This document shows positions 4,217 to 27,852 of a stretch of 64,000 bases of DNA, one piece after another (position 1 is the first letter of the stretch; every line of letters starts with the position of its first letter). Origin of the DNA: Escherichia coli (GTDB lineage Bacteria; Pseudomonadota; Gammaproteobacteria; Enterobacterales; Enterobacteriaceae); the NCBI RefSeq assembly GCF_009931435.1, contig NZ_CP043414.1. One strand, given 5' to 3'. The notes under the pieces are model-generated. The model was not told the origin of the DNA, did not search any database, and saw only the letters and a list, made by a program, of their open reading frames with translations. The translations under genes and the position numbers were made by a program.

Positions 4217-5884
4217 GTGGCTCAATTCGTTTATACCATGCATCGTGTCGGCAAAGTTGTTCCGCCGAAACGTCATATTTTGAAAAACATCTCTCTGAGT
4301 TTCTTCCCTGGGGCAAAAATTGGTGTCCTGGGTCTGAACGGCGCGGGTAAGTCTACCCTGCTGCGCATTATGGCGGGCATTGATAAAGACATCGAAGGTG
4401 AAGCGCGTCCGCAACCGGATATCAAGATTGGTTACCTGCCGCAGGAACCTCAGCTGAACCCGGAACACACCGTGCGTGAGTCCATTGAAGAAGCGGTTTC
4501 TGAAGTGGTTAACGCTCTGAAACGTCTGGATGAAGTGTATGCGCTGTACGCCGATCCGGATGCCGATTTTGACAAGCTGGCCGCTGAACAAGGCCGTCTG
4601 GAAGAGATCATTCAGGCTCATGACGGTCATAACCTGAACGTTCAGCTGGAGCGTGCGGCGGATGCGCTGCGTCTGCCGGACTGGGACGCGAAAATCGCTA
4701 ACCTTTCCGGTGGTGAGCGTCGTCGCGTGGCGTTGTGCCGCCTGCTGTTGGAAAAACCAGACATGCTGCTGCTCGACGAACCGACCAACCACCTGGATGC
4801 CGAATCCGTAGCGTGGCTGGAACGCTTCCTGCACGACTTCGAGGGCACCGTGGTTGCGATTACCCACGACCGTTACTTCCTCGATAACGTTGCAGGCTGG
4901 ATCCTCGAACTTGACCGCGGTGAAGGTATTCCGTGGGAAGGTAACTACTCCTCCTGGCTGGAGCAGAAAGATCAGCGTCTGGCGCAGGAAGCTTCACAAG
5001 AAGCAGCGCGTCGTAAGTCGATCGAGAAAGAGCTGGAGTGGGTACGTCAGGGAACTAAAGGCCGTCAGTCGAAAGGTAAAGCACGTCTGGCGCGCTTTGA
5101 AGAGCTGAACAGCACCGAATATCAGAAACGTAACGAAACCAACGAACTGTTTATTCCACCTGGACCGCGTCTGGGCGATAAAGTGCTGGAAGTCAGCAAC
5201 CTGCGTAAATCTTACGGCGATCGTCTGCTGATTGATGATCTGAGCTTCTCGATCCCGAAAGGGGCGATCGTCGGGATCATCGGTCCGAACGGCGCGGGTA
5301 AATCAACCCTGTTCCGTATGATCTCTGGTCAGGAACAGCCAGACAGCGGCACCATCACTTTAGGTGAAACGGTGAAACTGGCATCTGTCGATCAGTTCCG
5401 TGACTCAATGGATAACAGCAAAACCGTTTGGGAAGAAGTTTCCGGCGGGCTGGATATCATGAAGATCGGTAACACCGAGATGCCAAGCCGCGCCTACGTT
5501 GGCCGCTTTAACTTTAAAGGGGTTGATCAGGGTAAACGCGTTGGCGAACTCTCCGGTGGTGAGCGTGGTCGTCTGCATCTGGCGAAGCTGCTGCAGGTTG
5601 GCGGCAACATGCTGCTGCTCGACGAACCGACCAACGACCTGGATATCGAAACCCTGCGTGCGCTGGAAAACGCCCTGCTGGAGTTCCCGGGCTGCGCGAT
5701 GGTTATCTCGCACGACCGTTGGTTCCTCGACCGTATCGCCACACACATTCTGGATTACCAGGATGAAGGTAAAGTTGAGTTCTTTGAAGGTAACTTTACC
5801 GAGTACGAAGAGTACAAGAAACGCACGCTGGGCGCAGACGCGCTGGAGCCGAAGCGTATCAAGTACAAGCGTATTGCGAAGTAA
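4217..5884 (+). CDS. ettA: ABC-F translation factor EttA (YjjK)
   Basis: 555 aa with two ABC cassettes (GLNGAGKST..LSGGERRR..LLLDEPTNHLD and GPNGAGKST..LSGGERGR..LLLDEPTNDLD). Confidence 0.95.
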   Translation: MAQFVYTMHRVGKVVPPKRHILKNISLSFFPGAKIGVLGLNGAGKSTLLRIMAGIDKDIEGEARPQPDIKIGYLPQEPQLNPEHTVRESIEEAVSEVVNALKRLDEVYALYADPDADFDKLAAEQGRLEEIIQAHDGHNLNVQLERAADALRLPDWDAKIANLSGGERRRVALCRLLLEKPDMLLLDEPTNHLDAESVAWLERFLHDFEGTVVAITHDRYFLDNVAGWILELDRGEGIPWEGNYSSWLEQKDQRLAQEASQEAARRKSIEKELEWVRQGTKGRQSKGKARLARFEELNSTEYQKRNETNELFIPPGPRLGDKVLEVSNLRKSYGDRLLIDDLSFSIPKGAIVGIIGPNGAGKSTLFRMISGQEQPDSGTITLGETVKLASVDQFRDSMDNSKTVWEEVSGGLDIMKIGNTEMPSRAYVGRFNFKGVDQGKRVGELSGGERGRLHLAKLLQVGGNMLLLDEPTNDLDIETLRALENALLEFPGCAMVISHDRWFLDRIATHILDYQDEGKVEFFEGNFTEYEEYKKRTLGADALEPKRIKYKRIAK

Positions 5885-15949: not shown

Positions 15950-16075
15950 GAAGGCGTTGTTGCCAGATGGCGGATGTTGTTATTGCCTGATGCGATGCTG
16001 ACGCATCTTACAAGGCCTACACGGCACTCGACCCGTAGGCCGGATAAGGCGTTCGCGCCGCATCCGGCATCCACC
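15950..16075. repeat. REP/BIME elements in the deoC-deoA intergenic region
   Basis: REP-type palindromes GCCTGATGCGATGCTGACGCATCTTACAAGGCCTAC and GTAGGCCGGATAAGGCGTTCGCGCCGCATCCGGCA. Confidence 0.5.
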
Positions 16076-16092: not shown

Positions 16093-16872
16093 TTAGTAGC
16101 TGCTGGCGCTCTTACCGTCGCCGTGGCCCAGCGCTTTCAGCAAGCTTGCCAGCAGGCTGGAAGCACCAAAGCGGTAGTGACGCGCATCTGCCCAGTCAGC
16201 ACCGAAAAGTTCATCTGCAATCGCGAGATATTTCTGCGCATCTTCCGCAGTACGCACGCCGCCCGCAGGTTTGAAACCAACGGTTTTCTCTACGCCCATA
16301 TCACGGATCACTTCCATCATGATGCGCGCGCTTTCCGGCGTCGCGTTCACTGCTACTTTACCGGTAGAGGTTTTGATGAAATCAGCACCCGCTTTAATGG
16401 AGATTTCAGACGCTTTACGGATCAGCGCTTCGTCTTTCAGTTCGCCGGTTTCAATAATCACTTTCAGCAGTACGTTCGCTGCTGCGCAAGCCTCTTTACA
16501 GGCTTTCACCAGATCAAAACCAACCTGCTCGTTACCCGCCATCAGTGCACGGTACGGGAACACTACGTCAACTTCATCGGCACCGTAGGCGATTGCCGCA
16601 CGGGTTTCTGCCAGCGCGATTTCGATGTCGTCGTTACCGTGTGGGAAGTTAGTTACCGTAGCGATACGGATTTCCGGGGTGCCCTGCTCTTTCAGCGTTT
16701 TGCGAGCAATCGGGATAAAGCGAGGGTAGATACAGATAGCGGCGGTATTGCCGACCGGAGTTTTGGCCTGATGACACAGGGCGATCACTTTCTCGTCGGT
16801 ATCGTCGTCATTCAGGGTGGTCAGGTCCATCAATTTCAGTGCACGCAGGCTGCTTGCTTTCAGATCAGTCAT
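16093..16872 (-). CDS. deoC: Deoxyribose-phosphate aldolase DeoC
   Basis: Start placed at [29 protein letters not shown]... (259 aa). Confidence 0.95.
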
Positions 16873-16916
16873 TTCATTCTCCTGGCTTGTCGCCAATAAA
16901 ATTCACCTTGCGAGTT

Positions 16917-16932
16917 TGTTAGTATTCTAACA
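16917..16932. promoter_or_regulatory. DeoR operator O2 (deoP2)
   Basis: TGTTAGTATTCTAACA, 15 of 16 matches to the DeoR palindrome; centre lies 599 bp from O1. Confidence 0.6.
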
Positions 16933-17129
16933 TCGACTCCGCAACACACTTCGATATACATCACAATTAAGGAAATCTACTTACAAAATTGCATTACTGT
17001 AATGCGATCTGGTTCAAATAATTCACTTTCAAATGAATGCGTCAGTGGTGGCAAACGCATCAGGATCAAAGTGAACATCACGAAACTTCTTACAATGGCG
17101 CATCACCTTCGGCATAAAAGGAACAGAAG

Positions 17130-18680
17130 ATGCCCACTTCTCATGAAAATGCACTGCAACAACGTTGCCAGCAAATTGTCACCAGCCCGGTACTTAGCCC
17201 GGAGCAGAAACGCCATTTTCTGGCGCTGGAAGCAGAAAACAATCTGCCTTACCCGGCGTTGCCTGCCGAAGCCCGCCGCGCGCTGGATGAAGGTGTAATC
17301 TGCGATATGTTTGAAGGTCATGCGCCGTATAAACCGCGCTATGTCTTACCCGATTACGCCCGTTTTTTGGCCAACGGTTCCGAATGGCTGGAGCTGGAAG
17401 GCGCAAAAGATCTTGATGACGCACTCTCTCTGCTGACCATTCTTTACCACCACGTTCCTTCGGTCACATCGATGCCGGTCTACCTGGGGCAACTGGATGC
17501 GTTGTTGCAACCGTATGTTAGAATTCTAACACAAAACGAGATCGATATTCGAATAAAACGTTTCTGGCGTTACCTCGACAGAACCCTGCCAGACGCCTTT
17601 ATGCACGCCAATATTGGCCCGTCTGATTCACCCATTACCCGTGCGATTTTACGCGCAGACGCAGAGCTGAAGCAGGTTTCACCGAACCTGACTTTTATCT
17701 ACGATCCTGAAATCACCCCTGATGACCTGCTGCTGGAAGTGGCGAAAAACATCTGTGAATGTAGCAAACCGCACATCGCCAACGGTCCCGTGCATGATAA
17801 AATTTTCACAAAAGGGAGCTACGGGATTGTGAGCTGTTACAACTCACTGCCGCTGGCGGGTGGTGGCAGTACGCTGGTACGCCTCAACCTGAAAGCCATT
17901 GCCGAGCGCAGCGAATCGCTGGATGACTTCTTTACGCGCACTCTACCGCACTACTGCCAACAGCAGATCGCCATCATCGATGCGCGGTGTGAATTCCTCT
18001 ATCAACAATCACACTTCTTTGAGAATAGCTTCCTGGTGAAAGAAGGGCTGATTAACCCTGAACGTTTTGTGCCAATGTTTGGCATGTACGGACTGGCAGA
18101 AGCGGTTAACTTGTTGTGTGAGAAAGAAGGAATTGCCGCACGTTACGGTAAAGAAGCCGCTGCGAATGAAGTGGGTTATCGCATTAGCGCGCAACTGGCG
18201 GAGTTTGTCGCCAATACCCCCGTGAAATATGGCTGGCAAAATCGCGCCATGCTACACGCACAGTCGGGGATAAGTTCCGATATCGGCACCACGCCGGGCG
18301 CGCGTTTGCCGTATGGCGATGAGCCAGATCCGATCACCCATCTGCAAACTGTCGCCCCGCATCATGCTTATTATTATTCCGGCATCAGCGACATTTTGAC
18401 GCTCGACGAAACCATCAAACGTAATCCGCAGGCGCTGGTACAGCTTTGCCTCGGTGCCTTTAAAGCCGGAATGCGTGAATTTACCGCCAATGTCAGCGGT
18501 AACGATCTGGTTCGCGTTACCGGTTATATGGTGCGTTTGTCGGATTTAGAAAAATATCGTGCCGAAGGTTCACGTACCAATACCACCTGGCTGGGAGAAG
18601 AAGCCGCACGCAACACTCGTATTCTGGAACGCCAGCCGCGCGTGATAAGCCATGAACAGCAGATGCGCTTTAGTCAGTAA
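17130..18680 (+). CDS. yjjI: YjjI, glycine-radical-enzyme-like protein (DUF3029)
   Basis: 516-aa [20 protein letters not shown]..., divergent from deoC and followed by its activase yjjW. Confidence 0.85.
17516..17531. promoter_or_regulatory. DeoR operator O1 (deoP1)
   Basis: Perfect palindrome TGTTAGAATTCTAACA; spacing to O2 is 599 bp as published for the deo operon; lies inside the yjjI reading frame. Confidence 0.65.
17795..17810. promoter_or_regulatory. Candidate DeoR distal operator OE
   Basis: TGATAAAATTTTCACA, 12 of 16 matches; centre lies 878 bp from O2, the published O2-OE distance. Confidence 0.4.
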
Positions 18681-19515
18681 GATTATCCCCTTCTCCTGCG
18701 TTGACGGGCCAGGCAGTCGTCTGGCTCTGTTTTTACAGGGCTGCAATCTGCGCTGCAAAAACTGTCACAATCCGTGGACGATGGGGCGCTGTAATGATTG
18801 CGGTAAGTGCGTGCCACAGTGTCCGCATCAGGCGTTGCAGATTATTAACAGCAAAGTAGTGTGGAACGCAGCCGTCTGCGAGCAGTGTGATACCTGTCTG
18901 AAGATGTGTCCGCAACATGCCACGCCGATGGCGCAATCCATGAGCGTGGATGAGGTGCTTAGACATATCCGCAAAGCGGTGCTGTTTATCGAAGGGATAA
19001 CGGTAAGCGGCGGCGAAGCCACGACCCAGCTGCCGTTTGTGGTGGCGCTTTTTACTGCCATCAAAAACGATCCGCAACTGTGCCATCTCACCTGTCTGGT
19101 GGACAGTAACGGCATGTTGAGAGAAACCGGCTGGGAAAAATTGCTCCCGGTGTGCGACGGCGCGATGCTCGATCTCAAAGCGTGGGGAAGCGAATGTCAT
19201 CAGCAGCTAACCGGACGCGATAATCAGCAGATCAAGCGCAGCATTAGTCTGCTTGCCGAGCGCGGCAAACTGGCAGAACTGCGTTTGCTGGTAATCCCAG
19301 GCCATGTGGATTATTTGCAGCATATCGATGAGCTGGCGGCGTTTATCAAGGGACTTGGCGATGTTCCGGTACGCCTGAACGCGTTTCATGCTCACGGCGT
19401 GTATGGCGAGGCGCAAAGCTGGGCGAGCGCCACGCCGGAAGACGTTAAGCAATTGGCTGATGCGTTACGGGAGCACGGGGTGAGCCGATTAATATTTCCG
19501 GCGCTGTATTTGTGA
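18652..19515 (+). CDS. yjjW: Glycyl-radical enzyme activating protein (radical SAM) YjjW
   Basis: 287 aa; radical SAM motif CNLRCKNC plus ferredoxin-like cysteine clusters; overlaps the yjjI 3' end. Confidence 0.85.
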
Positions 19516-27530: not shown

Positions 27531-27617
27531 GCGAAGGTGGCGGAATTGGTAGACGCGCTAGCTTCAGGTGTTAGTGTCCTTACGGACGTGGGGGTTCAAG
27601 TCCCCCCCCTCGCACCA
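27531..27617 (+). tRNA. leuQ: tRNA-Leu (anticodon CAG), copy 1
   Basis: 87-nt GCGAAGGTGGCGGAATTGGTAGACGCGCTAGCTTCAGGTG...CCCTCGCACCA with encoded CCA; long variable arm; anticodon CAG. Confidence 0.95.
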
Positions 27618-27645
27618 AAAACCACGTTGATATTGCTCGCACTGG

Positions 27646-27732
27646 GCGAAGGTGGCGGAATTGGTAGACGCGCTAGCTTCAGGTGTTAGTGTTCTTACGG
27701 ACGTGGGGGTTCAAGTCCCCCCCCTCGCACCA
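27646..27732 (+). tRNA. leuP: tRNA-Leu (anticodon CAG), copy 2, with a C-to-T change at position 48
   Basis: Identical to copy 1 except GTTCTTACGG instead of GTCCTTACGG in the variable arm. Confidence 0.95.
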
Positions 27733-27765
27733 AACGAGGCGATATCAAAAAAGTAAGATGACTGT

Positions 27766-27852
27766 GCGAAGGTGGCGGAATTGGTAGACGCGCTAGCTTC
27801 AGGTGTTAGTGTCCTTACGGACGTGGGGGTTCAAGTCCCCCCCCTCGCACCA
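27766..27852 (+). tRNA. leuV: tRNA-Leu (anticodon CAG), copy 3
   Basis: Identical to copy 1. Confidence 0.95.

Follow-up and report, generated by a model that had tools for sequence, protein, structure and literature searches.

Can one stretch of DNA serve as the control region of an operon and, on the opposite strand, as the coding sequence of its divergent neighbour, and does selection leave the marks of both tasks on it? This question is raised by the boundary between the deo operon and yjjI in a 64,000-nucleotide stretch of Escherichia coli DNA, here called the window. DeoR represses two tandem deo promoters, which are 599 bp apart, by looping (PMC3334521). The operators O1 and O2 are located at these tandem promoters, about 600 bp from each other, and a further operator, OE, is found about 300 bp further upstream; the loops formed by DeoR have been visualised by electron microscopy and looping has been measured in vivo (PMC8053113). 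The repressor is a hexamer or octamer (PMC4217526), and deoxyribose-5-phosphate acts as the inducer that releases it (PMC5326754). One of the deoCABD promoters has been described as lying 'in an upstream gene, yjjI' (PMC6389913). An earlier note on this DNA had claimed that three DeoR-type palindromes occur here at the published deo spacings and that two of them fall within the yjjI reading frame, which would place the DNA under a dual constraint, and had proposed to examine the synonymous sites of the yjjI codons concerned.

Gene context and identity of the locus

The first gene of the deoCABD operon, deoC, occupies positions 16093-16872 on the minus strand and encodes deoxyribose-phosphate aldolase (TIGR00126, E 3e-88; E. 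coli genome annotations likewise give deoC). It is followed in the window by deoA and deoB, and all three operators are situated upstream of it. On the plus strand, yjjI (17130-18680, 516 codons) is an open reading frame for a YjjI-family glycyl radical enzyme, recognised by TIGR04040 and PF11230. At the protein level, YjjI shares 99% identity with its counterparts in E. albertii and an Escherichia sp.; a sequence search for relatives of solved structure found none. The gene for the activase of the glycyl radical enzyme, yjjW (18652-19515, plus strand; TIGR04041, E 3e-119), has a 29-nt overlap with the yjjI stop and is mentioned here as context, being located outside the deo control region.

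The DNA of the window is 95-99% identical to that of 5,423 E. coli genomes. The well-described K-12 deoCABD region, with deoP1/O1, deoP2/O2, OE and CytR/CRP at P2, is the same locus as that of the window. In K-12 (locus L001), gene order, the 257 bp that separate the start of yjjI from that of deoC in the RefSeq annotation, the operator sequences and the distances of 599 and 279 bp all equal those of the window. The two differ by a few neutral substitutions, e.g. AAC against GAC at yjjI codon 136, and nothing functional differs between them. Mapped onto K-12 U00096.3, O1 is predicted at 4616664-4616679, O2 at 4617263-4617278 and OE at 4616385-4616400. We hold with high confidence that this part of the window is the usual deoCABD control region of enterobacteria.

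The operator triad

O1 is found at 17516-17531 (minus strand), where the window reads TGTTAGAATTCTAACA, a perfect palindrome. O2 is found at 16917-16932 (minus strand) and reads TGTTAGTATTCTAACA in the window and TGTTAGAATACTAACA on the deo strand. For OE, at 17795-17810 (given without strand), the window reads TGATAAAATTTTCACA. Direct reading and a script gave the same result for these sites, with start-to-start spacings of 599 bp between O2 and O1, 279 bp between O1 and OE and 878 bp between O2 and OE. Measured against the 16-bp palindrome type TGTTAGAA/TTCTAACA, O1 is perfect, O2 shows one mismatch and OE shows four. The DeoR operator consensus is said to stem from Mortensen et al. in 1989; we take the three 16-mers to be the footprinted DeoR operators, going by the papers of 1985-1989 and by the geometry. 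When the 64-kb window was searched for the O1 palindrome, allowing at most three mismatches, O1 and O2 alone were returned, while 0.15 sites are expected from shuffled sequences. The claim of three palindromes with a perfect O1 was borne out, and the spacing agrees with the published one, i.e. the 599 bp with PMC3334521 and the geometry of about 600 plus about 300 bp with PMC8053113.

On the deo strand, both O1 and O2 hold TGTTAGAAT, which conforms to the extended -10 pattern TGnTAnAAT. Since this element opens both operators, a bound repressor would cover the promoter in either case. Within O2, the half with ATTCTAACA is kept across genera and the opposite half drifts.

The earlier note had called OE a weaker candidate. 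Sites with up to four mismatches number four in the window versus about 2.4 expected, and the sequence match of OE alone is not significant. Hence it could be argued that O1 and O2 are real and that 17795-17810 is a chance match with four mismatches and not a third operator. The chance of finding such a site at exactly this position is, however, only about 4e-5 per position, and the site lies about 300 bp past O1, as PMC8053113 describes. Moreover, no other 16-mer of yjjI is as well conserved between genera, and the site shows the lowest synonymous ratio of the gene and is absent where deoC is not adjacent (see below). On account of its exact position and its conservation we accept OE as the third operator and consider a chance match very improbable. 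The fourth operator-like site in the window, at 27684, falls within a tRNA-Leu gene, and we regard it as a chance match.

The operators lie inside the yjjI coding frame

O1 overlaps yjjI codons 129-134 (TAT GTT AGA ATT CTA ACA), and its first base is the third of codon 129; OE overlaps codons 222-227 (CAT GAT AAA ATT TTC ACA), from the third base of codon 222 onwards. The two operators thus share one phase relative to the yjjI frame. The only long open reading frame that spans both is the plus-strand frame of 516 codons at 17130-18680. If this frame was over-extended and the true start was located downstream of O1 or OE, there would be no coding overlap, an outcome which the earlier note had named as speaking against its own reading. 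Against such an over-extension, both PGAP and RefSeq K-12 annotate yjjI with 516 codons, and profile coverage of YjjI begins well ahead of both sites (TIGR04040, residues 11-504; PF11230, residues 22-504). Homologues with 33-57% identity align across both operator segments, the 3-periodic substitution pattern described below continues through the operator region, and a -10 element, a Shine-Dalgarno sequence and the ATG are conserved at 17091-17132. We therefore regard the probability of an over-extended frame as practically negligible. Taken together with the 257-bp gap and the K-12 CDS annotation, these data place O1 and OE inside the yjjI frame, with its start upstream of both.

The intergenic region was analysed in an alignment of 76 distinct yjjI-deoC regions. 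Seen from the deoC side, the conserved order is O2, two CRP-type boxes, an unconserved spacer, GGATCAAA, a -10 element, the Shine-Dalgarno sequence and the ATG. The conserved block at 17002-17017 (minus strand; TTTGAACCAGATCGCA on the deo strand) is presumably the second, upstream CRP-like site of deoP2, in keeping with what is known of this promoter. The other box, the deoP2 CRP site at 16950-16965 (minus strand; TGTGATGTATATCGAA on the deo strand), is centred at about -40 and is likewise conserved in the alignment; the CRP ChIP-seq motif reported for the yjjI/deoC intergenic region is the same 16-mer (PMC4287617). On the yjjI side, the Shine-Dalgarno sequence and the ATG (17130) are conserved across the 76 regions, and GGATCAAA and the -10 element are the only conserved blocks in that half of the intergenic sequence which is nearer to yjjI. 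We infer a putative yjjI promoter at 17063-17096 (plus strand), composed of GGATCAAA as FNR-type half-site (17063-17070) and the -10 element TACAAT (17091-17096), which reads TACAAT or TACACT across the alignment. Direct activation of yjjI by FNR has been reported, along with an FNR ChIP peak in the yjjI-deoC intergenic region (PMC3688515).

Synonymous-site constraint at O1 and OE

Nucleotide changes in yjjI were counted by Fitch parsimony on a neighbour-joining tree of 77 distinct yjjI sequences with adjacent deoC, covering codons 24-500. Hereby, on average 2.7, 1.7 and 15.8 changes per site were found at codon positions 1, 2 and 3, respectively, a pattern which indicates purifying selection on the YjjI protein. 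While the median is 114 changes per 16-nt interval, OE shows only 6, the lowest value in yjjI, and O1 shows 19, of which 14 fall on a single base (AGA to AAA or GGA). For the synonymous ratio, third-position change was normalised by amino acid in six-codon intervals (n = 350). The observed/expected ratio obtained in this way is 0.021 for OE (rank 1 of 350) and 0.027 for O1 (rank 2 of 350) at a median of 1.0, where the ranks, the sequences being related, are descriptive and not exact probabilities.

At the level of single codons, AGA131 (found in 55 of the 56 sequences with Arg) and CTA133 (75 of 77 sequences) are essentially fixed. Together with CGA141 and ATA142 they are held in place although they are rare within yjjI. 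The examination of synonymous sites proposed in the earlier note thus singled out the codons of O1 and OE as the two most constrained six-codon intervals of the gene. Given the lowest synonymous ratios, the fixed rare codons and the lack of operators, together with varied codons, in eight loci without adjacent deoC, the dual constraint, coding as well as regulatory, at O1 and OE is real.

As an alternative, the frozen nucleotides could reflect constraints of yjjI itself, i.e. on its protein, codon preference, mRNA structure or translation pausing, in which case the likeness to DeoR operators would be incidental. In line with this, the protein is under purifying selection, and positions 17553-17567 partly encode a K-R-F-W motif that is common among closer homologues. 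The segments at O1 and OE are, however, variable parts of the YjjI family, and the fixed AGA, CTA, CGA and ATA codons are rare, contrary to the outcome expected of codon preference. Moreover, genomes without adjacent deoC show similar residues encoded by varied codons, an Rfam search of 16900-17900 returned no family match, and the frozen blocks fall on 16-bp palindromes at published spacings. An explanation by constraints of yjjI alone is thus largely refuted, and we assign it only a very slight chance, so that the operator function of this DNA, in addition to its coding function, is the reading retained here.

Comparison across loci

A genome scan with YjjI yielded 295 loci, of which the best 80, ranging from Escherichia to Proteus, were compared. 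Among these best 80, deoC is divergently adjacent in 74, and in two (L010, L061) the upstream sequence is too short to tell. The gap between yjjI and deoC is mostly 215-272 bp and reaches about 460-470 bp in Hafnia and Edwardsiella. An O1-type site is found at yjjI offset 386 in all 76 non-Proteus loci of the best 80, as well as in K-12 and in the window; it mostly shows zero or one mismatch, and two in two Citrobacter loci and in Edwardsiella. OE is present in Hafnia and Edwardsiella, too. The distance between O1 and OE is fixed at 279 bp, corresponding to 93 codons without indels. The distance between O1 and O2, on the other hand, equals 599 bp in Escherichia and Salmonella only. Values of 567-626 bp are found elsewhere, except for Edwardsiella, whose weak O2 candidate lies 675 bp from O1. 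The spacing of 599 bp, given as exact in the earlier note, hence stands for Escherichia and Salmonella and does not hold elsewhere. It is a value of particular lineages and not a constraint, in agreement with a loop of about 600 bp that is insensitive to helical phase.

An independent metagenome locus (L086, 77% identity), in which deoC-deoA-deoB is adjacent to yjjI, carries the full operator triad, with TGTTACTATTCTAACA as O2, TGTTAAAATTCTAACA as O1 and TGATAGAATTTTCACA as OE. Hereby, O1 and O2 are 610 bp apart and O1 and OE again 279 bp. In this locus O1 is located at offset 398, because its yjjI has four extra N-terminal codons.

In the four Proteus loci deoC is not adjacent (the upstream genes are smp and serB) and no operator-like site is found at O1. 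The third positions of the operator codons mostly differ among these four closely related species. Likewise, neither an adjacent deoC nor an operator-like site is found in L082-L085, of which L082 and L083 are distant yjjI-yjjW loci and L084 and L085 show 65-67% identity; the corresponding residues are encoded by varied codons. The more distant loci L087-L090 have no adjacent deoC, either. Operators are thus present in every deoC-adjacent locus (among the best 80 of 295, plus L086) and absent in the eight loci without deoC (four Proteus loci and L082-L085).

When the YjjI family is aligned, the segments of O1 and OE border gaps and coincide with the greatest variation among distant homologues. 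The O1 segment reads PYVGNLSE in L084 and PYVGDQTE in L085. More generally, the outgroups and Proteus have YVG-x-L at O1, Hafnia and Edwardsiella have YVGIL (TGTTGGAATTCTAACA), and the Enterobacteriaceae have YVRIL or YVKIL. Since the operator segments vary across the wider YjjI family and the operators occur only beside deoC, the operators most likely arose inside an existing gene once the deo operon adjoined yjjI, the outgroup polarity behind this reading being derived from a handful of loci. The residues suggest that building these sites inside yjjI also changed its protein.

deoP1 and its transcript

The deo promoters were positioned here by means of the extended -10 motif and of descriptions in the literature. 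The extended -10 element TGTTAGAAT of deoP1 is located at 17531-17523 (minus strand), i.e. within O1, and a transcription start near 17516 on the minus strand is predicted. A simple sigma-70 scan called neither P1 nor P2, because their -35 elements are weak. The sole call of the scan, an internal sense promoter TCGCCA-16-TAAAAT (plus strand) overlapping OE, was rejected, as its -35-like part is conserved no more than coding demands. With a start near 17516, P1 transcripts would run antisense to yjjI nucleotides 1-387 and continue across the yjjI promoter to P2 and deoC; hereby, we infer a P1 leader of about 644 nt.

A further conserved block is located upstream of the deoP1 -10 element, at about -35 to -52 (17550-17568, minus strand), and coincides with yjjI codons 141-146. 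Its synonymous observed/expected ratio is about 0.2, the parsimony counts drop to 9 changes per 16-nt interval at around 17550-17570, and the rare codons CGA and ATA are fixed in place within it. Judged by this conservation, the block is a probable upstream element of P1. Compared by eye, PurR, Cra and IHF-like sites all gave no good fit to 17550-17568.

Proposed mechanism and relation to known systems

According to the literature, multimeric DeoR binds the three 16-bp operators and loops the intervening DNA. Looping shuts both deoP1, at O1, and deoP2, at O2, with OE serving as an upstream helper, and deoxyribose-5-phosphate releases DeoR from the operators. As there are only about 257 bp between deoC and the divergent yjjI, deoP1, O1 and OE come to lie inside yjjI, at codons 129-146 and 222-227. 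The operator DNA hence serves two purposes, and selection preserves its synonymous sites and fixes rare codons.

The operators, their spacing and looping by DeoR have been known since the 1980s, and the coding overlap is on record (PMC6389913) and implicit in the K-12 annotation. A literature search found no report of the synonymous-site freeze or of the lineage-restricted origin. Both are unlikely to surprise a specialist.

The lac operon also possesses auxiliary operators in coding DNA, namely O2 within lacZ and O3 at the end of lacI. Like lac, the deo system uses a looping repressor and operators located hundreds of base pairs away in DNA that also encodes protein. Unlike lac, deo has a whole promoter and a primary operator in the coding sequence of a neighbour, on the opposite strand, and the host gene yjjI is without known functional link to the regulated operon. 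In addition, DeoR is a larger multimer, which makes double loops possible. Other repressor sites within reading frames are the PurR operator in the purB coding sequence and the internal gal operator OI in galE. In contrast to purB and galE, where the gene's own expression is regulated by roadblock or looping, the known target of the deo sites is the divergent operon.

Possible coupling of yjjI-yjjW to DeoR

DeoR bound at O1 and OE could in addition block yjjI or loop it out, and P1 could interfere with the yjjI promoter, which would make yjjI-yjjW part of the DeoR response. Such cross-talk would supplement the explanation given above and not replace it. The yjjI promoter and the first 129-227 codons of the gene are enclosed in the O2-O1 and O2-OE loops, P1 faces the yjjI promoter head-on, and OE, nominally a weak operator, is the best conserved site. 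Moreover, a CRP ChIP-seq peak has been reported within yjjI near P1 (PMC4287617), and a NupC-type nucleoside transporter adjoins yjjI-yjjW in two Enterobacterales-like loci. On the other hand, yjjI is reported as FNR-activated (PMC3688515) and groups with nitrate and anaerobic genes, no nucleoside genes are found near the distant yjjI-yjjW loci, and the conservation of OE is well enough accounted for by its deo role and the coding constraint. Weighing both sides, we consider an additional role of DeoR at yjjI possible but doubtful. The more far-reaching proposal, that deoP1, O1 and OE were built within yjjI, altered its protein and thereby left the anaerobic yjjI-yjjW genes coupled to DeoR, appears unlikely. 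If there was such a coupling, it would act via enclosure of the yjjI promoter in the loop, a roadblock to transcription at both O1 and OE, and antisense transcription that P1 directs head-on against the yjjI promoter; in this case the strict conservation of the 'weak' OE may reflect a second role.

Implications

The deo/yjjI locus provides a quantitative illustration of how regulatory DNA overrides the codon choice, and even the amino-acid choice, of a neighbouring gene over the long term. The constraint spans Enterobacteriaceae and Hafniaceae, and the lineages without adjacency of the two transcription units serve as a natural negative control. In practice, synonymously recoding, deleting or tagging the first 230 or so codons of yjjI will disturb deoCABD regulation, and yjjI knock-outs may give deo-related phenotypes.

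Conserved elements within yjjI

Besides the DeoR operators, a further stretch of yjjI shows strongly reduced synonymous change. Codons 141-146 (17550-17568) have an observed-to-expected ratio (obs/exp; amino-acid-normalised third-position change in 6-codon windows, median 1.0) of ~0.2, the third strongest dip within the gene, and the rare codons CGA and ATA are fixed here. The block corresponds to about -35 to -52 relative to the predicted start of deoP1, the deo promoter at operator O1, and is probably an upstream element of this promoter. Alternatively, the block, in which the palindromes TATTCGAATA (17546-17555) and AAACGTTT (17556-17563) are found, may be the binding site of another factor.

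Among the operators themselves, OE (17795-17810; 17794-17813 with its flanks) is more conserved than either O1 (17516-17531) or O2 (16917-16932), although it is nominally the weakest of the three. Read on the plus strand, OE gives TGATAAAAT, which has the shape of an extended -10 element and was flagged in the promoter scan. It also contains TGATA-N6-TCACA, which matches the CRP core at 8/10 bases, a score likewise reached by O1. In a CRP ChIP-seq study of ETEC a peak was reported within yjjI, ~544 bp from the CRP site of deoP2, the promoter at O2 (PMC4287617). This peak maps to ~17453-17530 in the window, near O1 and deoP1. The motif picked at the yjjI peak by the MEME run of those authors shows no conservation of synonymous sites. 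The peak inside yjjI may result from cross-linking via the DeoR loop or from binding of CRP to O1 itself.

A weaker synonymous dip (obs/exp ~0.27) was observed at yjjI codons 295-302 (18012-18035), 220 bp beyond OE. It includes TTTGAGAAT, which shares 7/9 bases with the half-operator TGTTAGAAT; the dip could be due to two-fold codons with strong preferences. The only other DeoR-like site with four mismatches in the window, TGTTAGTGTTCTTACG at 27684-27699, falls in the middle gene of three tandem tRNA-Leu(CAG) genes (27531-27852) and was rejected as a chance match. An operator-like 16-mer with four mismatches, TGTAAGAATTGTCACA or TGTAAAAATTGTCACA, is also present at 4610-4625 in all four Proteus loci (L078-L081). 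Here, it lies in the coding region of the activase gene yjjW, at its start, and its recurrence is probably driven by coding. REP-type repeats occur between deoC and deoA (15961-16074); on either strand, they match Rfam naRNA4 at a score below threshold.

Gene neighbourhood of yjjI

One 574-residue protein call on a 2.9-kb contig (P0155) carries YjjI-like and DeoC Pfam domains, and is probably an erroneous gene call spanning the divergent gene pair. In the four Proteus loci, smp and serB precede yjjI. In E. coli both genes are located beyond deoCABD-hipH-lplA, and thus the whole deo block is missing at the yjjI position in Proteus, consistent with either an insertion in one lineage or a loss in the other.

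With respect to nucleoside-related genes, none were seen linked to yjjI-yjjW in seven other loci without adjacent deoC. Genes for NupC-family nucleoside transporters directly adjoin yjjI-yjjW in two Enterobacterales-like loci, L085 (1681-2931) and L086 (5425-6702), of which the former has no deoC nearby. This adjacency hints at a local link of the YjjI-type glycyl radical enzyme with nucleoside use, but the seven loci above lack it.
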